Virus record (IMG/VR): IMGVR_UViG_2713896799_000015
Coordinates: 1-41,227 of that record
Source of the DNA: a virus
Lineage: Duplodnaviria; Heunggongvirae; Uroviricota; Caudoviricetes
DNA: 41,227 nt
Direction: 5' to 3' (one strand)
The notes under the pieces are model-generated. The model saw only the letters and a list, made by a program, of their open reading frames with translations, was not told the DNA's origin and searched no databases. The number at the start of each line of letters is the position of its first letter. The stretch's first letter is position 1. A program made the translations under genes and the position numbers. Shown in pieces: positions 3,096-35,658 of this stretch.

Positions 3096-3189
3096 CGTTT
3101 AATGTGCATGAAGCCCCACTTAGTTAGTGAAATAACACACATATTAAACCATATATGAATCACATTTAAACGGATAACTCTTCACGAAA

Positions 3190-3204
3190 TTACCCTATAG
3201 GTGA
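3190..3204. promoter_or_regulatory. Operator-like site TTACC-CTATA-GGTGA (imperfect) upstream of acyltransferase gene
   Basis: Matches the TTACC-N5-GGTAA family with one mismatch in the right half; 37 bp upstream of the 3241 start. Confidence 0.4.
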
Positions 3205-7443: not shown

Positions 7444-7547
7444 GTTAAATCTCCAGATAGTCGCAGCACCCGTTGCGCCGCATATCTGGTTATTCTATTA
7501 CCTGAAAAACCATATATGGATAGAAAGGCTGTAAATACGAATAGATA

Positions 7548-7619: not shown

Positions 7620-7639
7620 ATTGCATGGAGAAGATTAAG

Positions 7640-7897
7640 ATGCAGCAGTATCACTATCCACTGGAAGACGGATTTACCGAAAGGATTCACACGCCGGGAG
7701 GCGTCAGGTCACTGGTGGAGGGATCGCACTTGATGAAATTACTCCGGGATCTCGATAAGGATGGATTTAATGTCGATGGCCCACTTGCCGAACTGACTGC
7801 ACTGATTAACTACGTCACCAGCTCACAGATGTCTATGCGGGATCTGCAAACACATCTCGACTATTGTGCCGAACAATTACGAAAACAAACCCGGTAA
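7640..7897 (+). CDS. Small antirepressor-like protein (stand-alone homolog of Ant C-terminal domain)
   Basis: GGAG 9 nt upstream of ATG; aligns with the last ~85 residues of the 312-aa Ant (shared YxYPL, IHxPxGV, LMKLL, DG, AELT, RDxQTH). Confidence 0.55.
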   Translation: MQQYHYPLEDGFTERIHTPGGVRSLVEGSHLMKLLRDLDKDGFNVDGPLAELTALINYVTSSQMSMRDLQTHLDYCAEQLRKQTR

Positions 7898-7971: not shown

Positions 7972-8910
7972 TCAGAAGAACCCTGCCTTGTCGTTGATGT
8001 ATTCCGCGTGCGTCTGGATATCACGCAGGCATTTGCTCACACCGACGATGTAGCAGAACATGGTGGTCAGCTCCGCCGCCGCGCCCGATACATCGTGCCC
8101 GTCTTCCTGTAACTGGTTCAGCAGTTTCATCAGCAGTGAGTTCTCCGTCAGGCCGAGAACACCCGACGGCGAATGAATCAGACTGCGGTAGCCTGGCTTC
8201 AATGGATAACCATAACATTTTGTCTGTGTTTTAATTGCCTCACGAAGCGCATCTAACATCTTGACTGCCACTTCATCATTCTCTGATGCAGATCCAGCAG
8301 GGAGATACTCCCCTTCAAGCGGAACCCGAGCAACAAGAGACAACGCTTCGGCAAATTGATCTTCACCAATTTCTTTGTACGAACAGCCAAAATGAGATTT
8401 CAGTGACGACCACATGGTGATCATCGCCTTAGCCTGTTTTTCTTTTGGCAGAGACTGACCGCGACTCATGACGAGTTGTTTAATGGCTTCCTGCTGTTCA
8501 GTTGTTATTTTACCCGGCAACGCCTTTTTAGCTTTGCGTGGGTTAACCACATGGCCTTTAGTCCAGTACTCGTAGAGCACATCGTCACACTCTTCCTGAT
8601 ACTGGATTACCTTGTCGCGGATTTCAGGGCGGACTTTGTTAGGGCTGATGCTGTTCAACCAAGCTGCCAATTTTCGTAAAGCCATACAAATCATGGCTTG
8701 CACCCCACCGGCAGAAGGTATGGTGATTTCCACCATACCCTTCGAGAAGCGTTGAGAAATCTTCTTATGTTGAGATTTCCAGTCTAGCCCCATTCCCTCA
8801 ACGATAGGTTTCATTGGGGTATACGGTTCGCCGTTGTGATTGACAACATAAAGCTCTGCGCCGTGGAATGGCACGTTGATAGTAGATACTGCTGTTGCTA
8901 TACTCGTCAT
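7972..8910 (-). CDS. Antirepressor Ant
   Basis: 312 aa, directly downstream of an Arc-like gene as in P22 immI; C-terminal domain shared with the small LexA-linked gene. Confidence 0.65.
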   Translation of the reverse strand: MTSIATAVSTINVPFHGAELYVVNHNGEPYTPMKPIVEGMGLDWKSQHKKISQRFSKGMVEITIPSAGGVQAMICMALRKLAAWLNSISPNKVRPEIRDKVIQYQEECDDVLYEYWTKGHVVNPRKAKKALPGKITTEQQEAIKQLVMSRGQSLPKEKQAKAMITMWSSLKSHFGCSYKEIGEDQFAEALSLVARVPLEGEYLPAGSASENDEVAVKMLDALREAIKTQTKCYGYPLKPGYRSLIHSPSGVLGLTENSLLMKLLNQLQEDGHDVSGAAAELTTMFCYIVGVSKCLRDIQTHAEYINDKAGFF

Positions 8911-8958
8911 GTCGTTAATTCCTATACGTAGTTTTACGATACTGAAGCCCTGACGGTC

Positions 8959-8973
8959 TGGCCACCGTGGGGC
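8959..8973. promoter_or_regulatory. Mnt/Arc-type operator-like site (core CCACCGTGGGGC)
   Basis: Shares 12 bp with the 9165-9179 palindrome; lies between arc and ant. Confidence 0.4.
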
Positions 8974-8982
8974 TTCGCTGTT

Positions 8983-10367: not shown

Positions 10368-13300
10368 TCACCGCATCACCGGATCCACCTGGTTTATTAG
10401 TGGCGCAATCCAGAACAGGTTATTGCCGGGTATCAGGGTTCGGACATTATGCACAATACGATCACCGGCATCACCATTAAACACTCCTGCGGTCACATCA
10501 ATGATGCTATCCGCAAGACCAAATGACGGTCCGAATAGAGATCCTACGAATCCACGACTGGCATACCTAGACTGTGTGCCAGTGCCAAATAAAGCCCCCA
10601 GCCCAACAGCACCACCAGTAGCCTTTTCAGCCATATTGTTATATTCCATCAATGGCCCAAGAATACCGGATCTATCTATACCCTCAAGCACCAGCTTCTC
10701 TGGTGACCAGTCAACATTTTTCCCTTTCGATGCTTCTTTAAGCGCATAGACCAGTGAGCCAAGAGCAATCTGAAATGCAGTGCCATAATAAAATTGCGCA
10801 GTTCCTTCCTGTAACCCACCAAGTAGCGCACGGTTGTATGAAGCCGTTGTGAATGATTTAAACTGAAATATCGTTCGCCCCATTGGAGTACTCGCCCATA
10901 AAGGTGTGTCACCAATACCGGGGGTGATGATAGTGTTATTAACGTCTTTCAGAACCGCTGACTGGAATACTCCGGCAACGTACTGATCGTCCCATTTATC
11001 AAAGTTACCAATGTGCCATCCATCAATTACCTCACCATGTTTCTCGAACTCACTGCGAATACGCGCAGCCATATTGTCGTTGATACCGAGTTTTGCCATG
11101 CGACGTGCAGAAAACGCACCAGACAAAATACCGTCTGACGTGAGCATTCCGTTCATGGATTTGTTTATGTCATTAAATCGATCCATGAGTGTCAGCTTGC
11201 CGAAGGCATCAGTAATTCGCTCCATTCCTGCTTCGACTGCTGTTGTCCTGGAAGAACTGTCAACAAGATCACCAATTGCACGAGAACGTGAATGTAGTAC
11301 AGTTTCCAATCCAATCCCCATCTTCAACATCTCTTCTTTGCTGGCCTTAAATGCCGGTGATTGGGATATCTGAGAAGCATAGCCTTTCATGGAGTTACGG
11401 AAACCATTAACCATAACCCCTCTGGCCAGATCTGGAATAGCTGATACTGTCATTCCACCGAGTTTGGTCGTGAAGTTCACATCCCGCAGAAAAGCGCCAG
11501 CACGAACAAAAAACGAAGACGGGTCATCAGGCATACCATATGTACCAACAAGACGATCGCGTAATGCTGTTATGTCTCTGAGATCATTTGCTCTTGATTT
11601 TGAAAGTCTGGACTGTTCTTTCCGTAATTCCTTTTCGTACTTTCGCATTAATGAATCGAGTTTACCCTGAGGAACAACTTCACCATTGCTCTCATAACGT
11701 GCTTTCAGATTTGCCACACTTTCGTCATATTTCGCCTTTATTTTTTCAGGCACTTCCCGTAACAGACTGTCATATTCGTCCTCAATTAATTGCAGACGCT
11801 CTGTCATAGTTCGTTTGCCAAATGTTCTCGTCAACTCAATTTCTGCTGCCGCTTCACGGATATGACGTTGTAGAACGTAATTCACATCACTTTCGAGATA
11901 ATCCCTGATAAGACTATCAGGCACATTTAATGTTCTTTCTTTCGTACTACCTGCGGCTTTTACAGAAAATACGCTGACAAAATCCTGTGGAACCTTAGCA
12001 CCAGTAATTTTATTAATTACGATATCCGCTGCAATTTCAGCATCCTCAGGATCCAGTGTTTTATTGCCTCTCGACCACCAGTCAACCAAAATACGTCGAA
12101 ATTTATCGCGTTCACTGATTATTTTTCCAACTTTATATATACGTGGGAAATAGCTTGCCTGGCCTAATGCTTTCAGTTCTTCATCTGGCGGCAATAAACC
12201 AAGCTTTTGCATTTCAACCTTCACCCGATTTAATACAGTTCGCATCGCCTGCGCCGTTTCCTGAACAACAGGATTAGCATGCACATCACCGCTTCGCATA
12301 GCATTCCCAACCTGCTGACGAAATGAATCAAAACTCATGTCACCACCATCAGCTTTATACTTTGCGTATGCCTGTTTATTTCCGACAACAACAGCAGCTT
12401 CTTCACGCTGCCATCCACGTGTACGGGTTTCTACAGCTACCGGTGTTTCAATCCCCCTTTCATTTCCTTTAAGGGTGAAATTATTTTCGGCTAACTCCAG
12501 CGTTGTTTTTCGCACTGTCTTGGACGGAGACTCCATTAACCTTGTCAAAGGAGTAAGATAGCTCCCTGCTTTCCATGCAGCCTTTCCAACCACCCCACCG
12601 GAAACAGGGGTTAAATCATCCAGAGTCGCTGTATCAATTTTCATAGCACCAACACTACCACCATCAGAAAGCGAAGCGGCAGCCCTGTCAGTCGCTGATG
12701 TAATGCTCATATTATCAAGAGCATCAGCAACCTCACGCGTGGCTGCAGCCCGGACGGATGGCGAAAGCGCAACACCAGCACTGGCAAACACGCCGCTCAT
12801 CATCGCACCCGCTGCAATGTGAGCGGTACTTTCACCCCATGAGCGTGTTATTTGCTGATTATTCAGCACAACCTCGCTTAATGCTGTACCGGCTGCACCA
12901 ATCGCAATCTGTGAGCCAATACGCGCCAGTGCCCCTCCTTGAGCACCGGGGATAAACATTGACGCAACAGTAACCGGATCCATTCCCGCAGCAATACTGG
13001 CAAGGGTTCCAACTACGCCAGCATCAGACAATAAACGTCTGTCTTCATTTTCATCATCTATCTGCTGCTTAATCCACGCCGTTTCCTCTGGCGATCGGGA
13101 ATCTGCAAATTTCGCCCCCCAGTATTCATAACCGTGCAACTCATTTTTATCAGCATATGGGTTATAACCTTCGACCGGTTCAAACTGTCTGGCTGGTCGG
13201 AAAAAACCAGCCAGAATATTGTTCTGTCGCATTGCAGCCCCCCATACGGAAGGCTCCGGTGGCAATGGCTCAGGATTAGCCCCTTCCGGAAGGGCAACAT

Positions 13301-13382
13301 CAAACCCAGTTTGTTCCGGCAAAACATTACCTGACGGGATCAGTCCGTTATTAAGATCTTCAGCTTGTGCATAAACTGGCAT
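10368..13382 (-). CDS. Internal virion (ejection) protein, large
   Basis: 1004 aa, last of the core-protein run before the tailspike (T7 gp16-like position); start overlaps upstream stop as TAATG. Confidence 0.55.
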   Translation of the reverse strand: MPVYAQAEDLNNGLIPSGNVLPEQTGFDVALPEGANPEPLPPEPSVWGAAMRQNNILAGFFRPARQFEPVEGYNPYADKNELHGYEYWGAKFADSRSPEETAWIKQQIDDENEDRRLLSDAGVVGTLASIAAGMDPVTVASMFIPGAQGGALARIGSQIAIGAAGTALSEVVLNNQQITRSWGESTAHIAAGAMMSGVFASAGVALSPSVRAAATREVADALDNMSITSATDRAAASLSDGGSVGAMKIDTATLDDLTPVSGGVVGKAAWKAGSYLTPLTRLMESPSKTVRKTTLELAENNFTLKGNERGIETPVAVETRTRGWQREEAAVVVGNKQAYAKYKADGGDMSFDSFRQQVGNAMRSGDVHANPVVQETAQAMRTVLNRVKVEMQKLGLLPPDEELKALGQASYFPRIYKVGKIISERDKFRRILVDWWSRGNKTLDPEDAEIAADIVINKITGAKVPQDFVSVFSVKAAGSTKERTLNVPDSLIRDYLESDVNYVLQRHIREAAAEIELTRTFGKRTMTERLQLIEDEYDSLLREVPEKIKAKYDESVANLKARYESNGEVVPQGKLDSLMRKYEKELRKEQSRLSKSRANDLRDITALRDRLVGTYGMPDDPSSFFVRAGAFLRDVNFTTKLGGMTVSAIPDLARGVMVNGFRNSMKGYASQISQSPAFKASKEEMLKMGIGLETVLHSRSRAIGDLVDSSSRTTAVEAGMERITDAFGKLTLMDRFNDINKSMNGMLTSDGILSGAFSARRMAKLGINDNMAARIRSEFEKHGEVIDGWHIGNFDKWDDQYVAGVFQSAVLKDVNNTIITPGIGDTPLWASTPMGRTIFQFKSFTTASYNRALLGGLQEGTAQFYYGTAFQIALGSLVYALKEASKGKNVDWSPEKLVLEGIDRSGILGPLMEYNNMAEKATGGAVGLGALFGTGTQSRYASRGFVGSLFGPSFGLADSIIDVTAGVFNGDAGDRIVHNVRTLIPGNNLFWIAPLINQVDPVMR

Positions 13383-16099
13383 TATTTAGATCCCCACGAA
13401 AAGTAATCTTTAAATTTGTCCATACGTTCGTTATGCAGGCGCTGATACTGCTCATCCAGAGCGCGATGCTTGTCTTTGAAGTTTCGTATAGCCTGTCCAC
13501 GCATAATTTCTTCCTGCTCGTACTGCTCCCGTTCCTGCTGCATTTTCTTATAAGGTTCCCAATCTTCTAGTGATGGTTCCCAACGCATAGGACGCCCATG
13601 TTTGTTATAAAACGGCTGGACCCGATCGATGCCATTTTCATCCTTAGTTCTTACCATAATGGCGTAATCACCATTACGAGGTGTTAACACGTCAGGGGTT
13701 ATGAATAATTCTCCATTAATACGACTCTCAGGGGTTTTTGTCTCAACTACAGGAGCATTACCTGACGTGATCCCAAGCAACGTCGGACTGGTTGTTATAA
13801 TCTCTTTGCGCTCACCGTACATCAGCCGTTCTTTTTCAGCTTTCCACTGCGCCGCCTGCCAGCCTGACGGCCCATATTGATAAAGCGCCTCCGGTGCATA
13901 TTTCATAAACTGCGCTTCTCCGTTAACCTCGCTGATACTCCAGGTGCGGGCTATCTGCTGGTTGGTCATTTGCTTCGCTACGTCAGCGTTACCACCAGCA
14001 ACGCGGTAGTTAATGTCATACAGCGTCTGATAGTCATTACGGAATCTAGCTGCTTCCGGCGTCTGGTCATCCGCAGACGGATCCCAACGGAACCACTGCG
14101 CCATATTGCTGACAGCAGAATTCATCGCCTTGCTGCGATTATTTTTGTACTCTTTTGAACTCTGCGTTGATGCCAATTGAGCTTTAAGAGCATCGGTCTG
14201 GTTGTACGTCAGGTTCTGCGCCTGCTCGATAGCCGCATCAGCAGACATGCCAGAATCTGTTAGTTGCTTAACAGTCAGATAAAAACCCTGCATATCCTTC
14301 GGCATATTTCCAATAGATGCATTGTCTGTTTCATATAACCGACTAAACAAATTCGCTGCATTTTTAACCACTTCCTGATTGCTGGATCTGGATACTGCTG
14401 AAAGCTGCGTGATGACCTGCGAAGGCATGATGCCAGTCTGAGCCACAAGCCGAACAACCCCATCATGAGTGGAGGCATCATTAATACGAAAGTTCTGCGC
14501 CATTTCTGTGTAATCAGCAGCTTTCTGCATTGATTTGTTGCTTGGGTCTAATTTTTCACCTATTGTCAGCGCCTCATTGAATCTGCGTGAATCACGTTGC
14601 GCCTGAATTGCTTCATTTGATCGCTGAAGCAATGCAGACAATTTTCCGTAAGCATCGAGTTTTAACGCATAGTGAGGATCGTTAACCTCAGGCTTCACTT
14701 TCTGCATTTCTTCTTGCTGCTGAGAAGGAGGTAAATACTGAATTGCCTGGAATATTCTCGCGTTATCAATCGCTATATCCAGTTGATTGATTATTTTATC
14801 TGCATTTTTTCCATACCCCCTGATGATAGTCTCCTGAGCCGGTATATAATCTGGAACCTCACCGTTATATAGCTGGGCCATGGTGTTATTAATAGCTGGC
14901 TCAAGCTGTTCTAATATTAACTTCCTTTGCTTTTCTATCTGACTATTAGCAAGGTTATCTATTTGATAAATAGTCAGCGGATCCATTCCAGTTTTATTTT
15001 TTCTATATCGGGAAAGCCACCCTTGTGTTTCTGATGGAAGATTTCGGATAAATTCTTCTTCTGATATTTCACCTTTACGTGGATCACCGACTTTGGCGAT
15101 CAGTTTATCCACGTTACCCATCCCCCAGTTATATGCTGCTCCGGTCAATATTTCGGAGCCGTACTTACCATACAGTTGATTTACATAGTCACTGGCGAGC
15201 ATTTCATGCTGTTGTTCGTCCGTAGGGTTGTATTTAACGCCACGCTTGGCCGCCAGTTCTTTCCCTGTGCCCGGCATTAACTGGTATTTCCCCTGGGCTC
15301 TCTCTCCAGAAGATGTTATCGGTCCTTCAAGAAGACTACCATCAGGATTAAAATGTCGATCACCTGATTCAACAAGGCGTATGGCACGCATGTCCATGCC
15401 TCCAGAATCATTTTTCTGAAACAGACCATTTAGCCATCCTTCTGGATTGGCAGCGGCATAATTCTTCGCCCGCATTTCTGTGGCACGGCGATCATCACTT
15501 TCTATTTCTTCCAGAATGCGTTCTTGTGACCATCCCCTGGCAGCTCCATATCTGGCAATGGCTACCATTCTGGAATTTCTGGCTAAAGTGGCAGTTTGCG
15601 GGTCATTCCAGGCATCCGCTTCATTTTGTATCCATAATTTTCTCGTTGCCTGATATTGCTCATCTTCATAGGCATTTGTCTGCCCTATCTCGTGCCGCCC
15701 TGCCTGCGTAGTGAACTGAATGCGCTGCTGCTGCGCCTGCTGCATGAAAGCATTACGAGCCTGTTCATCCGGCAGCGACATAGCCAGTTGTTCGACCTGA
15801 GCATCAAACTGCTGCGTATACTCATGGCCTTTTCCAATAGCATTTTTCCCTTTCAGGTTAAGCAAACCTGTTTCAGGGTTATTCAGCAGATCACTGCTTA
15901 TCTGACTGAGGTTAAGAGATGCCTCCTGAGCCAGAGCGATATTGGCACGCTGTTTTGCCTGCCCCAAAACATCAATTGCCTCTGTCCCTGCCCGAACAAA
16001 AGCATCACCAATACCTGGCTGAGAAAACGTCTGCAAGCCTGCTGACTGAACTCCACGGCTCTCAACCTGGCGTCCGGATACTGTTGGTACGACTGGCAT
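13382..16099 (-). CDS. Internal virion protein with lytic transglycosylase (SLT) domain
   Basis: ESGDRHFNPDGS...SSGERAQGKYQLMPGT...AAYNWG fits the SLT motif; start taken at MPVVPTV (ATG 16099), overlapping upstream stop as TAATG. Confidence 0.6.
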   Translation of the reverse strand: MPVVPTVSGRQVESRGVQSAGLQTFSQPGIGDAFVRAGTEAIDVLGQAKQRANIALAQEASLNLSQISSDLLNNPETGLLNLKGKNAIGKGHEYTQQFDAQVEQLAMSLPDEQARNAFMQQAQQQRIQFTTQAGRHEIGQTNAYEDEQYQATRKLWIQNEADAWNDPQTATLARNSRMVAIARYGAARGWSQERILEEIESDDRRATEMRAKNYAAANPEGWLNGLFQKNDSGGMDMRAIRLVESGDRHFNPDGSLLEGPITSSGERAQGKYQLMPGTGKELAAKRGVKYNPTDEQQHEMLASDYVNQLYGKYGSEILTGAAYNWGMGNVDKLIAKVGDPRKGEISEEEFIRNLPSETQGWLSRYRKNKTGMDPLTIYQIDNLANSQIEKQRKLILEQLEPAINNTMAQLYNGEVPDYIPAQETIIRGYGKNADKIINQLDIAIDNARIFQAIQYLPPSQQQEEMQKVKPEVNDPHYALKLDAYGKLSALLQRSNEAIQAQRDSRRFNEALTIGEKLDPSNKSMQKAADYTEMAQNFRINDASTHDGVVRLVAQTGIMPSQVITQLSAVSRSSNQEVVKNAANLFSRLYETDNASIGNMPKDMQGFYLTVKQLTDSGMSADAAIEQAQNLTYNQTDALKAQLASTQSSKEYKNNRSKAMNSAVSNMAQWFRWDPSADDQTPEAARFRNDYQTLYDINYRVAGGNADVAKQMTNQQIARTWSISEVNGEAQFMKYAPEALYQYGPSGWQAAQWKAEKERLMYGERKEIITTSPTLLGITSGNAPVVETKTPESRINGELFITPDVLTPRNGDYAIMVRTKDENGIDRVQPFYNKHGRPMRWEPSLEDWEPYKKMQQEREQYEQEEIMRGQAIRNFKDKHRALDEQYQRLHNERMDKFKDYFSWGSK

Positions 16100-16644
16100 T
16101 ATAATCCTCCGGGTAATCTGGTTCCTGCTGCTGCCCCGATTGGCGCAGGGGTGCTTTGAGTAAACGGACTCCACGTCCCACCAAACATCTGGTACGCACC
16201 GTATGCCTTCAGAGGCGCAGTGAGCAATGTTGTTGCTGCTCCCACATTCCCCTGTTTACGGGCTGAACTGGCTTCTGCTTTATAGTTGGCAGCCTGAACC
16301 TGATAACCGTAAGCCTCGCGTTGCGCGTTATTCACCGTCGTCAGCGAATCAAGAGCGCCAAACTGGGCAGTGTCGCCAAATATATCCAGCGCGTTACCTG
16401 TAGATAAATCAGCGCCGGTAGCCCCCATTGTCGCTGCCTGTGTACCAAGCCGCTGTCGGGTCTCTCTGCGCCGTTGCTCAGCTTCAGCGTTACCCCTGTT
16501 TATTGCATCATTTGCCTGAGCTGTGGCTATATCTGCGTTCGCTTCTGCAACCTTCGAGGCATACTTTCCCTGTTGGTACTGGGTGTATGCCTGAATGCCA
16601 CTCATGGCGAGCATTGCGCCACCAGCAATAACCGGATCGCACAT
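16099..16644 (-). CDS. Internal virion protein (T7 gp14-like position)
   Basis: 181 aa, Ala/Gly/Gln-rich, in synteny. Confidence 0.4.
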   Translation of the reverse strand: MCDPVIAGGAMLAMSGIQAYTQYQQGKYASKVAEANADIATAQANDAINRGNAEAEQRRRETRQRLGTQAATMGATGADLSTGNALDIFGDTAQFGALDSLTTVNNAQREAYGYQVQAANYKAEASSARKQGNVGAATTLLTAPLKAYGAYQMFGGTWSPFTQSTPAPIGAAAGTRLPGGL

Positions 16645-17108
16645 TATTTTCTCTCCATGTGAAATCTGTGGAAATTAAGACCAAGAGCACCATAAGGCGC
16701 GGCTTCTTCAAGCCTGAATCCAAGCCAGTGGAGCCATGCTTTGGCAACATGGTTTCGCTCGTCGACGTAGTTTTCCAGGCGCGGATAAACTGCCAGCATC
16801 TGCCGCAATACAGGGCGGCAGTGGCGCAGAAATGTCTTCTGATATTTTTCAATACGGCTGGTTCCTACCAGCCAGGGCGTACCATTGCCACCGATCATTG
16901 ACGCCGGAGATACACCAAACATGGTTACCAGTTCTCCGTTCGCGAACCCTGACCAGGCCATAGTCGCAGTGCGAAGACCAACGCGCAGCGCATCTTCGGT
17001 AGTCATCAGCGATACCGCATACAGTTCGTCAATATCAGCCTGACGAACATCCGGCAAAATCATCTGAAGATGCTCTTCGGTAGCGGGAATAATTTGAACA
17101 TCAATCAT
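16644..17108 (-). CDS. Internal virion protein (T7 gp13-like position)
   Basis: 154 aa between tail tubular B and core proteins. Confidence 0.4.
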   Translation of the reverse strand: MIDVQIIPATEEHLQMILPDVRQADIDELYAVSLMTTEDALRVGLRTATMAWSGFANGELVTMFGVSPASMIGGNGTPWLVGTSRIEKYQKTFLRHCRPVLRQMLAVYPRLENYVDERNHVAKAWLHWLGFRLEEAAPYGALGLNFHRFHMERK

Positions 17109-19579
17109 CAGAATCCCCCAACAGTAAGGCGAGGAATAACGGCAAGAACAGACAGCGGCAACGGGTCAAGCTGACGGATTTTTACACGCCCGTTTTTGCC
17201 CCAGTTACTGTCCAGTTTCACTTCTACTTTTCCGGTAGCATCATCAACAGGATCATCGTAGAACTCGAATTCACGCTGTGGATATTCGTACCATTTACCG
17301 CCGGGCGTAGTCGCCCAGATGCCGCGACTGGCATTCACAACCAGAGTAACGGACGGGATCACCTGTTTTTTGTCCAGCAGCGTTTCCTGTCCGTTAATGT
17401 TGATATCCAGTGTTTCGAATTCAGCAGTTATTGGCAGGCCGATGTGCACTACAGCCCCCGGAGATTCCAGCGTGACGGCACCTCCGGAAACCACTTTCTG
17501 TGGTTCCACGTTCGCATCAGAGAGGATGTTTACGGTCTGACCTTCAAGATGAGACAAGCCGCCAAATGCCCGGCGCGCCATCTGCCAGTTCGTGGTGGCC
17601 ACATTCCTGAGGGATGGCGGGACGTTCCTGTTAGCACGAACCACTACAGCGGTGTTGCTGGTTACAGAAATAATGTCGCAACGTAATTCTTTTGACACTT
17701 CATCGCCAGTATCGGGAACAGTTCCGGTATAAGGGAACTGTAGTTGCGCACCGACATCACTACTGGTGAAGTACGCACCACCAGAAACACTGATTGTATA
17801 TTCCGCGCGGTAATCCCATTCGCCAGAACCACCAGTGATTGTCATCGTTCTGTCAGACGTATTTCTTCCATCATAGCTAAGGCCAGAATCAACAAAGAAA
17901 GCGTCTTCATCGCTGGTAAATAAACGGCTGGACAGCCGTTCGATGTATCTCACTGTTTGCCCGTTAACGGTTCGGTTAACGACGAAATACACCGCATCTT
18001 CATTGCCTTCGCTGATACTGCATGTGCTTTCATATTTTCCGGTACTGGATTGTGGTGCCCATGCAAAAACCTGCTGATCACGCAAATAGGTCATCACCAG
18101 TAATTTACCGTCATCACGAATGCAGAAGGCACTGGAGTAAGGGACAATCGAGAAGCACCAGTCAACAATGCTGTGCTTCTGAAAAAGATGATTGGCAAGG
18201 ATGGTCAGGTCGTTCCCCTGATAGCCGTCAACATCGAATGAGTAGGCCAGATCACGGACAACGCTGCCTTTCTCCTGGACGAACAGAGCAATATTCGCCA
18301 CAGCAATTGGTGGGACGTTGCTTGAGCCATTTGATCCCTGAGAGCTGAATGCAAATGATGATGGGGTTAACACTTTGTTCTGGTCGCCAGTGATGACGTA
18401 CTCACCTCCGGAAGTCAGCGCCACCAGCGAACCAACATCAATCAGGTGGCGGATCTCATTAACCTGACGCCCGGCATAGGTGTAGATAATTCTGTCGTCA
18501 TCCTGCGTAGGATTGCTTTTGCCAAAATCCTTATAATCCCCGGTACGGCTGGCCCAGATAGTCTGAGGGAACGCGGTCGATGCGGCGAAGTAAAGACGTT
18601 GTTGATAATAAACAACAGTGCCAGGATAACCATTAACACTGTTCCAGGCATATTTAGCCCATTTATAGCTGGCATTATCCTCGCCAACTACCTGCGAAGG
18701 GATATAGGAAATCACCTCAGCAGTTGCAGTAGTGCCATTTGCAGCAGTGATACGGGCAATGCCAAAACCACTGTGCAGATATTCCCACTCAATGCCAGTA
18801 TCATCATCACCGGATCCGCCCCAGCCATCCCATGATGTGCCTTCTGTATGCGAAGGGCGCAAAGTACCTGTTTTGCCTGCTGTAACGGCGCGATAGTAGT
18901 TACTGTCTGCACGGCGAATATCGCCAATCGACGTACTCTTACTGGTTTCCCATACCGGTACTGAATCCACTGCAGGCTGTTCCAGATAGAACAATTTGCC
19001 TACCTGCTCCGCGCCAAAAATAGAGGCGCTTGCCGTTAACGTAATTGTCCCGGTGCTGGCGCTGGCATAAACCGTCACTGACTCATCAATATTGATATCT
19101 TCAAATGGCCCGTTCTTCGTTACCACATCAACCAGTTGCCAGTTGTCATGCGCATAGCGGCGCAGCTCTTTCGGCGGGTATGCCGGATGAACCAGCGTAA
19201 GCACGTCGGCGCTTTGCGTGAATTTAATTCGGAACAGATCGGCTTCAGTATATGGCGTGGCAATTTCATAAATAACATTGCTGCTGTTCAGCACCAACGC
19301 ACCATCTTTGATAACGCGCATGTACTGGTGTCCGAACTCCAGAGCGTAGGTCTGAACCGTCGAGAACTGGAACGGGATCAGGCGGCATTTCCGATTTGGG
19401 TACTTGGCGGCACCGACAAAACGCGTACCAGGTCGATTCTCAACGCCGCCATACTGCCGCACGATAAAGTTATCGCACTTGCGCAATGCCACCTGGTACT
19501 TCGCCATGTCGATACGACCGTACAACGACGGTCCAATCTCACCACCGGCAAAGCTGGGCTGGATCCAACTGATAGCCAT
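17108..19579 (-). CDS. Tail tubular protein B (nozzle)
   Basis: 823 aa, size and position match T7 gp12. Confidence 0.55.
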   Translation of the reverse strand: MAISWIQPSFAGGEIGPSLYGRIDMAKYQVALRKCDNFIVRQYGGVENRPGTRFVGAAKYPNRKCRLIPFQFSTVQTYALEFGHQYMRVIKDGALVLNSSNVIYEIATPYTEADLFRIKFTQSADVLTLVHPAYPPKELRRYAHDNWQLVDVVTKNGPFEDINIDESVTVYASASTGTITLTASASIFGAEQVGKLFYLEQPAVDSVPVWETSKSTSIGDIRRADSNYYRAVTAGKTGTLRPSHTEGTSWDGWGGSGDDDTGIEWEYLHSGFGIARITAANGTTATAEVISYIPSQVVGEDNASYKWAKYAWNSVNGYPGTVVYYQQRLYFAASTAFPQTIWASRTGDYKDFGKSNPTQDDDRIIYTYAGRQVNEIRHLIDVGSLVALTSGGEYVITGDQNKVLTPSSFAFSSQGSNGSSNVPPIAVANIALFVQEKGSVVRDLAYSFDVDGYQGNDLTILANHLFQKHSIVDWCFSIVPYSSAFCIRDDGKLLVMTYLRDQQVFAWAPQSSTGKYESTCSISEGNEDAVYFVVNRTVNGQTVRYIERLSSRLFTSDEDAFFVDSGLSYDGRNTSDRTMTITGGSGEWDYRAEYTISVSGGAYFTSSDVGAQLQFPYTGTVPDTGDEVSKELRCDIISVTSNTAVVVRANRNVPPSLRNVATTNWQMARRAFGGLSHLEGQTVNILSDANVEPQKVVSGGAVTLESPGAVVHIGLPITAEFETLDININGQETLLDKKQVIPSVTLVVNASRGIWATTPGGKWYEYPQREFEFYDDPVDDATGKVEVKLDSNWGKNGRVKIRQLDPLPLSVLAVIPRLTVGGF

Positions 19580-23095: not shown

Positions 23096-23388
23096 TCCTG
23101 TTCACTGGCCTCTTTGGCCATCTTCAAATACTGTTCAGGGCAATGCGCCATAACGCGCTGAAACAGTTCCAGCGCCAGATTGCGTTGCCCCTCATTAAAT
23201 GCCATTGCCATAGCGTCCATCGGTGAGATAGCGGAAAACACACGGCCTTTCTCCAGCACCGACCAGACAACGCGACGCCCATGTTCACTGCTCATGACAA
23301 AGCGAATGTCATCAATTTCACGCTGTGCCATGTCACGTTGCTTACGGGCGTTTTCTTCTTTCAGTTGATCGTCTTCGTAATCTGTCAT
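23092..23388 (-). CDS. Hypothetical small protein between portal and scaffold
   Basis: 98 aa, 4-nt overlaps at both ends. Confidence 0.35.
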   Translation of the reverse strand: MTDYEDDQLKEENARKQRDMAQREIDDIRFVMSSEHGRRVVWSVLEKGRVFSAISPMDAMAMAFNEGQRNLALELFQRVMAHCPEQYLKMAKEASEQE

Positions 23389-25064
23389 TGTGATTGCCCA
23401 CCCTGACCACTAACTGCATTCGCCATAGCTGACAAAACACTCGGATCCGAAGTTTTAGCTTCGCTTAGCGTCTTGGCACCCTGTGCCGCCGCCATCCCCA
23501 TCGCCATCATTTGTTGCTGCTGTTGCTGCTGTGCCCGTTGCTGGCGAGCCTGCTCAACCTGTTCCTGCGGAACAATGACGGTTGGAGACACTCCGGACAT
23601 ATCAGCGAATGCATCGATCGCCTGATCAACGTTGAGTTTGTCGAGAGCTTCTGGTTTCGCTTGCGCAAGTTGACCAATGAAGTTAACCGTGGACGCCAGA
23701 CTGGACAGGCCGATAGACTTCTGCGCCTGAGCCATGACGGAAATGTATTCGACCTTCAGGGGCATGCCTTCCATCGCGTCAGGCGGTGGCGGCAGCATGT
23801 TTTTACGCACCATCATCGAGAAAGCGCGGTCAATGAGAGGATTAAGACATTCGTCGTTCAGACGCTCCAGAACCGGCCCCAACATCAGAAGCTTTTCTTC
23901 TTTCATTTCGATCACCGCTTCAACAGGCATTGAGCGGGTATTGATGTTCTGCAACATCATGAACAGATCGACGAAGTAGGCGCTGTTAATGATTTGACGA
24001 GTGTCCTGAATGTCTGCCACCAAATCTGCTGTACTTGGGTTAACCAGATAAGCAGGCCTGAAGCCATCCTGACCAGTAATCTGATCGATATACGTGATGT
24101 CGCCAGGAAGAAGGGAGGCACGCTGATTCTTGAGGGAAGTCGGAGCAACCATCGGCGGATTGGTGGCTTTATCAATCAACTGCGACTTGCGCTTCTGGAG
24201 AAGCTGCAATGCCTTAACAGGTCCAAGCGCCAGCATACCCGGGCATGATGATCCATAAACATCTTCGCCATTAACTTCCCAGCGCGGAGCCATAATTGGA
24301 AACTCATCGAATCCGGACTCACGCAACAACTTGTCGTTATCGCCACCAACCTCGTAATAAACCGATTTGAATGGCTTGTTCTTGCTATCCAGCTTCGATG
24401 TATCGCGGTCAATGTTCGGGTAAACCGAATGCATCACTTCGATCCACTTCTCGTAGGTGCCGCTTTCCCACATGCTTTTTACGGATTCGCTGACGTTATT
24501 TAGCCCGAACTCCTGAACAAGCTGACGAACAGTCATAGAGAACTTGCGAAAACAGGTGTCAACACTGCCACGAGGTGAGTTAGCCAGGTAGTAACTGCCT
24601 ATCGGGAATGGCATTGTGCGAATGATGTCCTCGTCATCCTCCAGCACCGCCATTGCACCAGTGCTGTATGTGCAGAGGCTTCCGTATAACTGCGGAAGAG
24701 ACTGGTAGAGATTCGACTTATTGAACATATCGTTCATGCGGTTCTGCACCGCCTCGAGCCACAACTTAACAGGACCATAATCCATCATTTCAGGATCTGG
24801 CGTAGCCAGGCGAAACCACGGACGCGCAGGGCTTGTGATGCCTGACATCATGCCGCTGGCGAGAGTGCGCGCCGCCATAGTCCCGGTCGAATCAATAATG
24901 CGTGTATTGCGTCGATCGTTACGGTTGACCTCAGAAGTCAGAAAGCGGGAACCACGCGGGTTGATGTAATCACTCAACTCGCGCCAGTGCGGCTCGAACG
25001 ACTGACGCTCGCTTTCAAGTTGTGCGAACTGTTTGTTCAATCGCTCTTTAGTTGTTTCCGCCAT
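23385..25064 (-). CDS. Portal (head-to-tail connector) protein
   Basis: 559 aa with Gln-rich C-terminus, downstream of terminase as in T7-like modules. Confidence 0.75.
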   Translation of the reverse strand: MAETTKERLNKQFAQLESERQSFEPHWRELSDYINPRGSRFLTSEVNRNDRRNTRIIDSTGTMAARTLASGMMSGITSPARPWFRLATPDPEMMDYGPVKLWLEAVQNRMNDMFNKSNLYQSLPQLYGSLCTYSTGAMAVLEDDEDIIRTMPFPIGSYYLANSPRGSVDTCFRKFSMTVRQLVQEFGLNNVSESVKSMWESGTYEKWIEVMHSVYPNIDRDTSKLDSKNKPFKSVYYEVGGDNDKLLRESGFDEFPIMAPRWEVNGEDVYGSSCPGMLALGPVKALQLLQKRKSQLIDKATNPPMVAPTSLKNQRASLLPGDITYIDQITGQDGFRPAYLVNPSTADLVADIQDTRQIINSAYFVDLFMMLQNINTRSMPVEAVIEMKEEKLLMLGPVLERLNDECLNPLIDRAFSMMVRKNMLPPPPDAMEGMPLKVEYISVMAQAQKSIGLSSLASTVNFIGQLAQAKPEALDKLNVDQAIDAFADMSGVSPTVIVPQEQVEQARQQRAQQQQQQQMMAMGMAAAQGAKTLSEAKTSDPSVLSAMANAVSGQGGQSQ

Positions 25065-25078
25065 TTCAATGACTCCGG

Positions 25079-25285
25079 TTACTGACCAAGCAGCGTTTTA
25101 CCGCTGGTATTAGCGGTTGATGTGTCGCCCTGAGAACCGGTAAGCAGCGTAGAACTACGACCAGCAGCAGCGCGACGGCGACGTGTTTCTTCGTCGCGGG
25201 CATCAACAACGGCGGCATCCTGCTCCTGTGGTGCTGCCTGAACTTCTGGTGTTGCAGGCACTGATGGTGAGCTACCCATGCACAT
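25079..25285 (-). CDS. Possible small protein upstream of portal
   Basis: 68-aa ORF only; low-complexity composition, no other support. Confidence 0.2.
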   Translation of the reverse strand: MCMGSSPSVPATPEVQAAPQEQDAAVVDARDEETRRRRAAAGRSSTLLTGSQGDTSTANTSGKTLLGQ

Positions 25286-25353
25286 ATCAATGACTCCGTA
25301 CGCAATTAAATTATTATCAATTTAACCACATATGATTTATTTATCGTAGAAGG

Positions 25354-25390
25354 TTGACATTTAACGCGTGAATTATTACCTTTCAGGTAA
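25354..25390 (+). promoter_or_regulatory. Promoter-like TTGACA plus operator TTACCTTTCAGGTAA (25376-25390)
   Basis: TTGACA at 25354-25359; perfect operator copy begins 17 bp later, upstream of the tRNA unit. Confidence 0.45.
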
Positions 25391-25712
25391 CTAAAGAGCT
25401 CATTCTGGTTACTAACCTGACTGGCTTGTCGTTAAATTAAACAGGTGGAGTGAGCTTTTATTTTGAGCAGTACGGCGTATGGCACATGCGCCGATAGCGG
25501 TCTGGATACGTTTAAGGGGCACCCTCCCTTGCTCGGGCAAACGAACCAGGTAGCCGGAATGTGCAAGTCGAGCGGTTTTATTCCGCGCACGGGGATTCAC
25601 CATCCCGGCGATTCGGTGTGACGCCTCGGAAGAGACGAGGGTACAACGATGAGAGCATTTATGGAGCCGCGACAAAGTGTGGCGCCTTAACAGGCTAAGT
25701 GCTCTCAGCGTT
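25391..25712 (+). ncRNA. Candidate ~320-nt noncoding leader upstream of the tRNA
   Basis: GC-rich region with several short stems; only ORF here is an Arg-rich antisense frame that looks non-coding. Confidence 0.25.
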
Positions 25713-25789
25713 GTGGCATTAGCTCAGTCGGACAGAGCAACCGCCTTCTAAGCGGTTGGTCGCAGGTTCGAATCCTGCATGCCACGCCA
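25713..25789 (+). tRNA. tRNA-Arg (anticodon UCU)
   Basis: 77-nt cloverleaf: acceptor GTGGCAT/ATGCCAC, anticodon stem ACCGC/GCGGT, loop CTTCTAA, T-arm GCAGG-TTCGAAT-CCTGC, encoded CCA. Confidence 0.85.
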
Positions 25790-25832
25790 GAATCACGCCT
25801 AAGGACCGTGATGCCAGAAGTTCCAGGGGCTT

Positions 25833-25876
25833 GGCGGTGATGGTTTCCCTTGAAGGACTATCACCGCCCTTTTTAC
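25833..25876 (+). terminator. Terminator after the tRNA
   Basis: GGCGGTGAT ... ATCACCGCC stem followed by CTTTTTAC. Confidence 0.5.
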
Positions 25877-25952
25877 AGCAGGACGCCATTGCGATGACTT
25901 CATGCTGTAAACCCGTACAGCCACGGAAGGCATAACTCATTGCTTCCAGTTC

Positions 25953-25977
25953 GCCCGGTTCGCCGGGCATTTTTTTA
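25953..25977 (+). terminator. Terminator hairpin 10 nt upstream of the next start codon
   Basis: GCCCGG-TTCG-CCGGGC followed by seven T. Confidence 0.55.
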
Positions 25978-25987
25978 AGGTGAGATT

Positions 25988-26359
25988 ATGAACGACAAGC
26001 AAATCGAAAAAGAAATCGTTGAGAAAGGCAAAACGGCACCGCGCGTTACGCCAGACCATATCGAAGGAATTATTGCTCAGGAGGCATATTTCACAGCAGA
26101 AGATGGTGCCTTTGGCAAAGCCATAAAAGCGAAACATACTGGCGGAGAGGTAAACTACCAGCCGCACGAATCACTTTCTCTGCTGACGTTCTGCGTCCTG
26201 GTGCTGCGCAACGGCTTCACCGTCACCGGAGAGAGCGCCTGTGCAAGCCCGGAAAACTTTGATGCAGAAATTGGTCGGAAGATTGCCCGGCAGAATGCTG
26301 TAAACAAAATCTGGATGCTCGAAGGTTACTTGCTGAAGCAGAAGCTAAGCGAGCAATAA
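25988..26359 (+). CDS. Small phage protein, possibly Gp49/Sf6-gp66-like family
   Basis: 123 aa, AAGGTGAG RBS; family call is from recalled motif resemblance only. Confidence 0.4.
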   Translation: MNDKQIEKEIVEKGKTAPRVTPDHIEGIIAQEAYFTAEDGAFGKAIKAKHTGGEVNYQPHESLSLLTFCVLVLRNGFTVTGESACASPENFDAEIGRKIARQNAVNKIWMLEGYLLKQKLSEQ

Positions 26360-26375: not shown

Positions 26376-26380
26376 AAACA

Positions 26381-26406
26381 GCCAGCCGATGAGCTGGCTT
26401 TGTTTT
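26381..26406 (+). terminator. Rho-independent terminator
   Basis: GCCAGC-CGATGA-GCTGGC followed by TTTGTTTT. Confidence 0.6.
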
Positions 26407-26449: not shown

Positions 26450-27925
26450 TTAAGCATAGGGATCGTAATCTGTGATGGCCTTGCCTTGCTGGTTCTGCTG
26501 CCCGGGAATTCGCAGACGCTTCGACACAGGGAACGCAAACGTCAGCAGTAGCGCATCGCCTTTACCAGGCGAACGCCCAAGCCGCTCCTTGATATCTTCC
26601 TTCGGTTCGATAACGATTTTACCGTCCACTCGAACTTTGTACTCTGCCGCCGACAGATCGTCCGCTGTTTCCTGGTCATCCAGCATCCCGCCCAGCCTCA
26701 GCCATGTCTTGCATGAGTTGAACATCTCCCCACGCTTGTTGAGCATCTGCTGGTCAGTAGACGCGCCACCGAACGGAACAAGTTGCCATGTGCGCCCCCA
26801 ACCGTCACCGATTGACTTCAGACCGGTACCGTAACCAAAGTCGATGAACACTGCGTCAGCCTGATACAGGTCTTCAAAGTCAGCGATACGCTTCGCCATA
26901 ATCAGATCGTCGGTAGTCTTGTTGCCAGTCCACAGCACCTTACTGTGTAGCCCCTGCCGCAGGTATATCACCGCGTCATCAACGCCTGAATATGCCGGGT
27001 CAACACCGATTATCACCGGAGCATGCGCCACCTGCGCAGCGGTTACCACCCGTTTCATTGCCTCATCAGTAAGACCGGTAGGGATAAACTGCAATTCAGA
27101 TGCATCAGGGAATATGCCGCGCACACGGATTTTAACGAAGTCGCTGTCTTCCCCGTAGTCATCAACCCATTTCTGCAACTGCTGTTTGTTAGTGCCTTCC
27201 ACCGTCCGGCTGTCAATCTGCGCAGTTTTCCAGCGGTGTTTATATTTGCGGAAACATTCACGGAATCGCCCGGTATTACGCGTCGGGTTTCCGAACGCCA
27301 CCCAGATAATCTCAGTGTCTTCGTCCGTTAGCGCACCTTCGGCAACTTCCCACACCAGATCCGCAATGTTCGACGCTTCATCGAATACCACGATGATGCG
27401 TTTGCGCTCGTTGTGTAGTCCGGCGAATGCCTCAGTGTTGTGCTCAGACCAAGGGATTGCGTCAGCTCGCCACCGCTTGTCGTGCCCAGGATCATTGCTG
27501 TACATCGCGGTAGCGGTACAGGTAAACCAGTCTTTCGTGATAGCAAGGTTCGACCACTTGATAATTTCCGGCCAGGTCTTCGTTCGTAGCTGGTTGTCGG
27601 TGTTGGCGGTCACCACGACCTTACAATCCTCGCAAGTGGACATGCCCCAGTTGATCAGCATTGAGATGAATGCGGATTTACCAATACCGTGACCAGAAGC
27701 GCGTGCCAGCATAAGCGGCTGATAGCGCGTCTCTGGATTCTGCAGGTGATCACGTATCTCTCGGAACGCATCAGCCTGCCACTGACGTGGGCCGGTGGCA
27801 TGTGCCAGTTCAGTCCCCTCTTCCCCCCACGGGAACGCATAGAGGGCATAGCCAAGCGGATCGTGAGTGAACCCTGCAATATCCTCGATCAACTGCTCTT
27901 CAGGAGATAACGCTGTATCTGTCAC
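26450..27925 (-). CDS. Terminase large subunit
   Basis: Walker A GHGIGKS near N-terminus, 491 aa, 4-nt overlap with small subunit gene. Confidence 0.8.
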   Translation of the reverse strand: MTDTALSPEEQLIEDIAGFTHDPLGYALYAFPWGEEGTELAHATGPRQWQADAFREIRDHLQNPETRYQPLMLARASGHGIGKSAFISMLINWGMSTCEDCKVVVTANTDNQLRTKTWPEIIKWSNLAITKDWFTCTATAMYSNDPGHDKRWRADAIPWSEHNTEAFAGLHNERKRIIVVFDEASNIADLVWEVAEGALTDEDTEIIWVAFGNPTRNTGRFRECFRKYKHRWKTAQIDSRTVEGTNKQQLQKWVDDYGEDSDFVKIRVRGIFPDASELQFIPTGLTDEAMKRVVTAAQVAHAPVIIGVDPAYSGVDDAVIYLRQGLHSKVLWTGNKTTDDLIMAKRIADFEDLYQADAVFIDFGYGTGLKSIGDGWGRTWQLVPFGGASTDQQMLNKRGEMFNSCKTWLRLGGMLDDQETADDLSAAEYKVRVDGKIVIEPKEDIKERLGRSPGKGDALLLTFAFPVSKRLRIPGQQNQQGKAITDYDPYA

Positions 27926-35073: not shown

Positions 35074-35658
35074 ATGAAAAGTATCCAGGACGTCCGCAGG
35101 CAAAATCTCAACGACTTGATCGACCGTGAATTCAATGGTGTTCAGACGCGGATGGCTGAAAAACTTGGAACTCAGGCAAATCTGGTAAACCGCTGGGCTC
35201 TTGGCAAGAAGGTTATCGGCGACCAGGTTGCGCGAAAAATTGAAGCTGCCGCCAATAAACCCCGTAACTGGCTTGATATCGATCGCTCGCTTTCTCAGGA
35301 AGGTTTTCAGCCTGTCGGACCAAGCGACATTGGTCAACTGGCGGCTCACAACCTGGAACGCTGGATGAGCGAAAGCCGCGACCTTTCAACGCAGGGAAAA
35401 CTTCACCGCGCATCCGGCGTCGCCCAGGTGACAATCAGCCGCCTGTTAAACAATGAGGTCAGCGTTTCCATTTCCACCCTGGAGAATGTTGCATCCGCAT
35501 TCGGGCGTCACGGCTATGAATTACTGATTCACCCGCACGACCCTGCGACTATCAACTATGACCGCTCGCGCTACGCTTTGTTACCCGAAACCGAGAAAGC
35601 AAAGATCGAAAGTTACATTGAATTTGTCATCAACCAGAACGAAAAAAACAAACAATAA
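35074..35658 (+). CDS. Prophage repressor, tandem HTH, no peptidase domain
   Basis: Two XRE-type HTH segments in 194 aa; no S24 Ser/Lys autopeptidase region; flanked by operator clusters. Confidence 0.55.
   Translation: MKSIQDVRRQNLNDLIDREFNGVQTRMAEKLGTQANLVNRWALGKKVIGDQVARKIEAAANKPRNWLDIDRSLSQEGFQPVGPSDIGQLAAHNLERWMSESRDLSTQGKLHRASGVAQVTISRLLNNEVSVSISTLENVASAFGRHGYELLIHPHDPATINYDRSRYALLPETEKAKIESYIEFVINQNEKNKQ

Follow-up and report, generated by a model that had tools for sequence, protein, structure and literature searches.

The stretch of DNA analysed here, referred to as the window, covers positions 1 to 41,227 of IMG/VR virus record IMGVR_UViG_2713896799_000015 (41,227 nucleotides (nt); Caudoviricetes), and the element in question surrounds a tRNA-Arg(UCU) gene between its portal and large terminase genes. 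Our results indicate that positions 25354-25976 are one repressor-controlled transcription unit, which encodes a modular non-coding RNA cassette and not a tRNA gene with a spacer. Upstream of the tRNA lies Module A, a pseudoknotted RNA of about 245 nt, and downstream lie Module C with terminator T1, further hairpins and terminator T2. On comparative grounds, we hold the anatomy of the cassette and selection at the RNA level to be shown with high confidence. The action of Module A is a more tentative matter: by analogy, it may be an antiterminator leader like the put RNA of phage HK022, processed by RNase P, a reading to which we give somewhat less than an even chance. An earlier sequence-only reading of this DNA had described the tRNA with a leader and two terminators; what goes beyond it is a multi-module RNA cassette that is common to lambdoid and P1-like phages and whose first terminator, judged by alignment, is the dicF slot of Escherichia coli K-12.

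Structure and putative promoter of Module A

The evidence for Module A comes from changes that preserve pairing. Alignment A2 comprises 28 sequences, pairwise less than 94% identical, retrieved with a near-invariant 19-mer from the junction of helices P2 and P3. RNAalifold gave 49 pairs on this alignment, 20 of them with compensatory changes, and the pseudoknot, which we added ourselves, is backed by four sequences in which C-G has become A-U. With the pseudoknot included, 97.1% of cells are paired, against 88.7% after shuffling and 32-45% when the partners are slid; double-sided changes occur in 21 pairs, and none of 500 shuffles attains any of these measures. Many of the pairs are G-U, and the RNA strand is therefore the + strand. 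The invariance of the 19-mer within A2 is a consequence of its use in retrieval; among 141 instances fetched via a different motif, it is exact in 128. The structure underlying model R1, which represents the 5′ core, came from RNAalifold and has GCACAU paired with AUGUGC in place of helix P1; the two are alternative pairings that invariant bases do not separate.

The sequence-only reading had allowed the leader to contain either a second, degenerate tRNA or another structured RNA, and the covariation bears out the latter. ARAGORN and Rfam give a single tRNA, which disposes of the former; as comparison with relatives indicates, the tRNA-like relationship is not in the leader but at the tRNA's own position, where relatives have a variable domain closed by GUGG/CCAC. 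Searches of Rfam 15, with the whole window at gathering thresholds and the region at E values up to 10, returned only the tRNA and, elsewhere, sar; Module A had no match, either here or in 16 relatives. No reading frame is conserved among the homologues. In the variable regions, indels do not come in multiples of three, and between members the longest open frame switches strand and frame, so that the open reading frames (ORFs) called here in some records are unlikely to be real. In phage mEp460, the annotated gene mEp460_037 (L002, 2943-3311, − strand) covers the structured RNA in antisense and was probably called in error. Two likenesses noticed by eye were discarded: a boxA in the 3′ strand of P6 (UGCUCUUU in some members), because this strand is base-paired, covarying and unconserved, and an enrichment of GGA (CsrA sites), which shows no excess over expectation.

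The control elements named in the sequence-only reading, namely TTGACA, a perfect operator copy, about 320 nt of GC-rich leader and two terminators after the tRNA, were all recovered. The leader (25391-25712) measures 322 nt, with 53% G+C compared with 48% for the window and 58% in its conserved part. The operator at 25376-90 has an exact twin at 7548-62; copies with up to three mismatches number 17 in the window, where 0.83 are expected, and about eight degenerate copies surround a helix-turn-helix repressor gene (35074-35658). A repressor site is annotated at the homologous place in the record of phage epsilon15. The −35 hexamer is perfect; we call the promoter putative because the −10 candidate is weak (3/6) and a consensus promoter scan made no call here. 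All 17 distinct upstream regions of the Uetakevirus type retain TTGACA, the palindrome and the spacing of 17 nt, whereas the sequence of the spacer varies. The long hairpin at the start of the leader is peculiar to the Uetakevirus-type version; to judge from its predicted fold, it may serve as an attenuator or as a site of processing, and in the epsilon15 record the corresponding stretch carries the label 'RNaseIII'. Both terminators carry a T run (25833-68 and 25953-68) and, although their number by scan is within chance (3 found, 1.7 expected), both are conserved in relatives with compensatory changes and have the features of intrinsic terminators. In T2, these changes are GC to AU in five sequences and CG to GC in four.

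Distribution and modular make-up of the cassette

The stretch 25472-25712 is 70-83% identical to unannotated DNA in unrelated phages with unrelated flanks. Carriers include the lambdoid phages mEp460, cdtI, Ayreon and 2H10, Stx2c and Stx2a phages, the P1-like elements P1, P7, D6, SJ46 and RCS47, and phages recorded from Klebsiella, Enterobacter, Salmonella and Stenotrophomonas hosts; 86 phage records have a match. By BLAST of 25470-25712, matches were found in 1,840 of 5,426 complete E. coli genomes, 1,473 of which have one that covers at least 80% of the query, and 554 of the matching places are on plasmids. The annotated feature at essentially every match listed for these genomes is "none". 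The 19-mer was also found in at least 119 IMG/VR contigs and at 24 loci of species-representative genomes. One of the latter (L140) was discarded as a chance match, and the other 23 belong to Enterobacterales and to one 1.7-kb contig binned as Bacillota.

The 153 loci collected fall into three settings. About 50 lie between portal and terminase, as in the window (Uetakevirus type). About 65 are situated downstream of a cI-type repressor gene on the same strand and upstream of early-left genes like yfdP/yfdQ, which is the place of the PL leader in lambdoid phages without an N gene, and about 13 lie between tciA/trnI and ban in P1-like elements. In mEp460, the stop codon and terminator of cI are followed by two operators, of the same TTGC-N7-GCAA type as in OR, and by a PL-like promoter; these lie 45-100 nt upstream of the element, which begins about 45 nt after the promoter and is followed by T1 and the first gene. 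The P1 copy is located inside the ban operon, which is repressed by C1. The placements in the three settings therefore imply that the RNA is always made from a promoter that is shut off by the prophage repressor. No N-like gene or protein was found after the element in the lambdoid relatives. In the K-12 prophage CPS-53, the element is lost although the downstream yfdPQR genes are shared. The type phage epsilon15 is without the tRNA and has a degenerate remnant of the 5′ core (L006, 2047-2169; model R1, 14 bits, E 0.04).

The tRNA was placed by the sequence-only reading between portal and terminase on the opposite strand, and both ARAGORN and Rfam (73.3 bits for RF00005, cut-off 29) agree; several database records already annotate the tRNA. 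It directly adjoins helix P6, with a U at −1, and conservation extends to GCGUUGUGG, which includes its first three bases. Where relatives have no tRNA, GUUGUGG and a downstream CCACAAC form a helix around a variable domain of 70-290 nt; beyond this helix, homology is taken up again at AUCACGCCUUAGGACCGUGAU, the same hairpin as behind the tRNA in the window. A tRNA-bearing locus (L036) and one with a variable domain (L142) are collinear and have an identical P6 insert, and the difference between them is confined to this slot. A flanking tRNA is found in 45 of 130 loci; it is tRNA-Arg(UCU) directly after P6 in the Uetakevirus type, and tRNA-Ile2, ending 16-18 nt before helix P1, in the P1 type. 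In locus L136, AAGCCGGAGATCAGCGCCGGCCACCACAAC, the 3′ end of a variable domain, stands directly upstream of helix P1, which suggests tandem or rearranged cassettes. The P6 insert of another relative (L062, IMGVR_UViG_3300011242_000058, 384-430) contains a complete-looking type I hammerhead ribozyme, CUGAAGAG...CGAAAC...GUC, at 28.7 bits (cut-off 34) and a local E of 8e-5.

That the tRNA supports translation of late genes, as was earlier suggested, is upheld in part. The AGA codon makes up about 2 per 1,000 codons in E. coli K-12, and the ORFs of the window have 6.5 per 1,000 (AGG, 4.5 per 1,000). AGA is absent from portal, capsid and terminase, and is concentrated in the large tail and ejection proteins, of which those at 10368-19579 carry 29, and in some early genes. 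The enrichment is thus real but modest, and codon supplementation is plausible.

Downstream of the slot, Module C is ordered as hairpin, single strand and terminator; its fold has a z-score of −2.6, and by this prediction its architecture is that of a small RNA (sRNA). The stems of T1, GGCGGUG/CACCGCC, are conserved across the family. After T2, a conserved ribosome-binding site (RBS) precedes different, unrelated cargo ORFs in relatives. At five loci (L012, L036, L085, L115 and L139), RBS and cargo ORF are replaced by TTACCTTAAAGGTA, an operator fused to a TATAAT box, so the next gene there has its own repressed promoter.

A link with dicF was found in the Qin prophage of K-12, where the stretch from ydfC to dicF aligns with the variable domain of cdtI and Stx2c phages (89% identity over 123 nt, E 8e-43). 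Qin thus holds a degenerate copy of the cassette: a P6-like helix precedes the variable domain, dicF aligns with T1 of cdtI (L159, 2640-2935) and the terminator hairpin UUGGCGG...CCGCCCUUUUU comes directly after the variable domain; the 5′ core is absent. In some other relatives, the single strand before T1 resembles the 3′ part of RprA or DicF, with scores below the Rfam thresholds (weak DicF matches in L062 and L104 have E 0.14-0.37). The alignment of dicF and these RprA- or DicF-like stretches at T1 together identify T1 as an sRNA slot. The RprA-like form is seen in L011 (1631-1750) and also in L009, L014, L043 and L045, where the stretch before T1 reads GCUGUGUGUAGUCUU (Rfam RprA, 50 bits, cut-off 70); by sequence likeness, such stretches may be phage sRNAs with an RprA-like seed. 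Module C of the window has neither an RprA nor a DicF seed, and the Rfam DicF model (RF00039, seed UUUCUGGUGACG) gave no match to 25250-26050 at E values up to 10. In P1, GAUUUUCUGGUGAUGAC (L005, about 3180-3200), which is like the DicF seed, stands directly after the truncated 5′ core, and a separate 'dicF-like region' is annotated in the P1 record 2.3 kb farther upstream, within the ban operon as well.

Table 1. Features of the RNA cassette and its neighbours, in window coordinates
Feature	Position	Strand	Basis
Portal ORF	23385-25064	−	PF12236
−35 hexamer TTGACA of putative repressor-controlled promoter	25354-25359	+	Read from sequence; conserved upstream of relatives
Operator palindrome TTACC-N5-GGTAA (TTACCTTTCAGGTAA), overlapping −10 candidate	25376-25390	.	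Exact second copy 7548-62
−10 candidate TACCTT, 17-nt spacing, 3/6 matches	25377-25382	+	Sole candidate at 17-nt spacing
Long leader hairpin AAGAGCUCAUUCU ... GGAGUGAGCUUUU, then U-rich stretch	25394-25459	+	Minimum free energy and centroid fold; conserved among Uetakevirus-type loci
Module A, pseudoknotted RNA of about 245 nt	25470-25716	+	Alignment A2, RNAalifold, pair counts, model R1 (145 bits here)
Helix P1	25473-81/25485-93	+	
Helix P2	25498-25504/25547-56	+	
Near-invariant 19-mer GGTAGCCGGAATGTGCAAG, P2-P3 junction	25549-25567	+	
Helix P3	25567-69/25607-09	+	
Helix P4	25592-95/25603-06	+	
Pseudoknot	25598-601/25615-18	+	P4 loop UCACC with downstream GGUG
Helix P5	25624-28/25636-40	+	
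Helix P6, closing variable insert	25642-61/25696-25715	+	
tRNA-Arg(UCU), 3′ CCA encoded, in cassette swap slot	25713-25789	+	ARAGORN (anticodon TCT) and Rfam RF00005
Module C: hairpin H1 AUCACGCC...GGACCGUGAU (25792-25812), single strand, terminator T1 (25833-40/25861-68) and U run	25790-25875	+	Terminator scan, fold, conservation
Hairpin H3, using T1 U run	25872-89/25894-25911	+	Alignment A4 consensus fold, AU to GC compensatory changes
Hairpin H4	25925-32/25941-47	+	Alignment A4 consensus fold
Terminator T2, GCCCGG/CCGGGC and U run, abutting RBS of next ORF	25953-25976	+	Terminator scan
RBS AAGGUGAGAUUAUG and cargo ORF, 123 aa, N4 Gp49 / Sf6 gp66 family	25977-26359	+	PF13876, E 9e-35
Large terminase homologue	26450-27925	−	

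The region is 94-100% identical to Uetakevirus phages (phiV10, typing phages 9 and 10, ZX5, PAS61 and TL-2011b), in whose records the homologous region is flanked by the head-to-tail connector and the terminase. Portal and terminase are both on the − strand, so the RNA unit is opposed to the late genes. Between the converging cargo ORF and terminase gene, a hairpin AGCCAGC/GCTGGCT with A-rich and T-rich flanks (26380-26405) looks, by sequence, like a two-way terminator, and the phiV10 record annotates a terminator at the homologous site. Elsewhere in the window, a sar antisense RNA (8912-8979, + strand; Rfam 44.8 bits, cut-off 43) adjoins a P22-type antirepressor ORF (7972-8910, − strand; PF10547), and the operator twin at 7548-62 lies with a half-site (7497-7507) upstream of the ORF at 7625-7897. 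From its sequence, this stretch looks like an immI-like region under the same type of operator.

Possible action of Module A

We propose that, when the repressor leaves its operator, a transcript of about 600 nt would be made, with Module A, the tRNA, Module C with T1, the hairpins and T2 abutting the cargo RBS in this order. RNase P would cut at 25712/25713, the 5′ end of the tRNA, and release Module A, while processing of the tRNA 3′ end would free Module C in the form of an sRNA-like molecule about 85 nt long and the tRNA would supplement the decoding of AGA. Module A may act on the transcribing RNA polymerase in the manner of HK022 put RNA, which would carry the enzyme across the long untranslated stretch and both terminators into the genes beyond, namely the cargo ORF in the window and, in lambdoid relatives, the early-left operon.

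An action like that of put is favoured because Module A takes the position of putL in lambdoid phages without N, because about 600 nt of untranslated sequence and two terminators precede the next gene, because the helix P1 pattern matches HK022 and HK639 at putL alone, and because put works untethered against both types of terminator. In mEp460 and in the window alike, the element is preceded at a short distance by an early promoter under repressor control (a putative one in the window) and followed by terminators, and T1 is conserved between PL and the first early-left gene in lambdoid relatives. The consensus of helix P1, CGGCR-N4-14-CATGYGYCG, has one match each in HK022 and HK639, both exactly at putL, with expectations of 0.04 and 0.18; when extended by AGCG, the pattern matches only at putL of HK022, with an expectation of 0.00. 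The put RNA is about 70 nt long with two stem-loops, forms no lasting tether to the polymerase and suppresses intrinsic as well as Rho-dependent terminators (PMC9378689). As a lead only, the mEp phage collection was first selected as Nus-dependent; mEp460 is not named in that source (PMC11893012).

Several observations weigh against a put-like action. Module A is 3-4 times the size of put and differently built, with six helices and a pseudoknot, and model R1 gave no match in HK022 or HK639 at E values up to 10. The shared motif is short, its gap range was set after seeing put, and its CAUG is base-paired in Module A, whereas U28 of put is flipped out. There is one copy per phage, on the PL side, and none within 2 kb on the PR side. 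The conservation of T1 in the family fits the end of an RNA gene as well as a hurdle for read-through. In the window, read-through past the cargo ORF would go antisense into the terminase gene, and P1 keeps the 5′ core only, with no terminator seen before ban.

Nearly as likely as a put-like antiterminator, and still a doubtful proposition in itself, is that Module A is a stable trans-acting non-coding RNA, excised by tRNA-processing enzymes, with terminators that merely end RNA genes. Such an RNA could bind or mimic a host component (RNA polymerase, an RNA chaperone, a nuclease or a defence protein) or assemble into a particle like GOLLD and ROOL, which are also large prophage RNAs beside tRNAs (PMC5737381). 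The tRNA that flanks it in 45 of the 130 loci, be it upstream or downstream, would give it defined ends; its single-stranded blocks are extremely conserved, as the 19-mer illustrates; it accompanies host-directed RNAs (the DicF slot, the RprA-like seed, tRNAs); and both the isolated 5′ core retained in P1 and T1 as a conserved part of the family agree with it. This reading names no target or partner and has no consistently linked protein gene, Rfam gives no similarity to GOLLD, ROOL, 6S or Y RNAs, and the passage of T1 in the early-left operon of lambdoids without N is left unexplained. It is unlikely that the cassette is instead a scaffold for processing or stability, in which the precursor folds for excision of the tRNA and of the sRNA in the DicF slot by RNases P, E and III. 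The interchange of tRNA and variable domain at one slot, the hammerhead, as another processing device, in the P6 insert of one relative, and the RNase III site annotated in the epsilon15 record would suit a scaffold, as would the presence of dicF in the same cassette in Qin; maturation of dicF by termination, RNase III and RNase E is among the published work that the reference list of PMC12197685 contains. A scaffold has no need, however, of near-invariant junctions and a pseudoknot across three phage lineages, and Qin matures DicF without the 5′ core, whereas P1 has the 5′ core without the downstream modules.

Less probable again is a sensor (a riboswitch, a thermosensor or a tRNA-binding leader) that would decide whether transcription stops at T1/T2 or continues. 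Such a role would suit an intricate fold, with a pseudoknot and invariant nucleotides at its junctions, that stands before two conserved terminators and an RBS; GUUGUGG, moreover, is contested between the outer pairs of P6 and the tRNA acceptor stem or GUGG/CCAC helix. However, a variable domain of 77-290 nt lies between the putative aptamer and the terminators, no alternative pairing of the core with the stems of T1 or T2 was found, Rfam is without a match, and the cargo genes are mutually unrelated and so suggest no common ligand. The simplest account, a phage tRNA gene with its own promoter and either a functionless leader or a small protein gene within it, appears highly improbable. Hypothetical ORFs in GenBank records (mEp460_037 and an ORF of phiV10, for example) and long stop-free stretches in G+C-rich DNA speak for it, but it is at odds with covariation that preserves pairing and includes G-U pairs specific to the + strand, with non-triplet indels and an open frame that changes strand and frame among members, and with 70-83% identity between unrelated phages. 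Taken together, a put-like antiterminator remains the reading that we prefer.

Significance and relation to known systems

Neither Module A nor the cassette was found described in Rfam, in GenBank/RefSeq annotation or in full-text searches of the literature, although older papers may mention them. It is conceivable, if doubtful, that Module A is the first member of a novel class of large regulatory RNAs in phages, either as the third processive antiterminator made of RNA only (after put and EAR), which would explain early-left expression in lambdoids without N, or as a stable RNA or ribozyme with a slot for tRNAs, a tRNA-like domain or a hammerhead, and that it is also the missing upstream half of the ancestral cassette of dicF. 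About one in four complete E. coli genomes holds this complex, strongly covarying RNA without annotation, and its carriers include Stx2-converting prophages and P1-like plasmids. If Module A is an antiterminator, it would answer an open question on lambdoids that have neither N nor put, and would add to the control of RNA polymerase by RNA. The well-studied sRNA dicF is placed within a larger conserved cassette, the swapping of modules at a helix that mimics the acceptor stem illustrates one route by which phages acquire tRNAs, and one induced transcript is predicted to yield three RNA products.

Among the large RNAs of phages, GOLLD and ROOL are structured prophage RNAs often found beside tRNAs (PMC5737381, PMC12286853). 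Their Rfam models gave no match here, at the gathering threshold or at E values up to 10, and they differ from Module A (about 245 nt) in a length of 500-800 nt and in occurring mainly in Firmicutes and Actinobacteria. No antisense target was found, and the Rfam C4 model has no match in this region; C4 antisense RNA and isrK, both above their Rfam cut-offs, occur in the Rha/antirepressor region of mEp460 (L002, 706-894, − strand). The C4 RNAs of P1 and P7, the CI RNA of P4 and the MALAT1-mascRNA pair are cases in which RNase P cuts a functional RNA from a longer transcript at a tRNA-like structure. Here, unlike in those systems, the site of RNase P cleavage would be a genuine tRNA or a domain whose helix resembles an acceptor stem.

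The dicB operon of Qin has a similar order, with the repressor gene dicA, an untranslated RNA region and then downstream genes, but differs in having ydfABC between the promoter and the RNA region. The put RNA is a cis-acting processive antiterminator that needs no protein factors and binds the zinc-binding domain of the β′ subunit. HK022 has both putL and putR, unlike the single copy of Module A in each phage; putR was not located by BLAST. In both systems the RNA is situated at the start of the early-left (PL) transcript of lambdoid phages without N, with terminators downstream, and Module A shares the base of its 5′ hairpin and the CAUGCGYCG motif with stem I of put.

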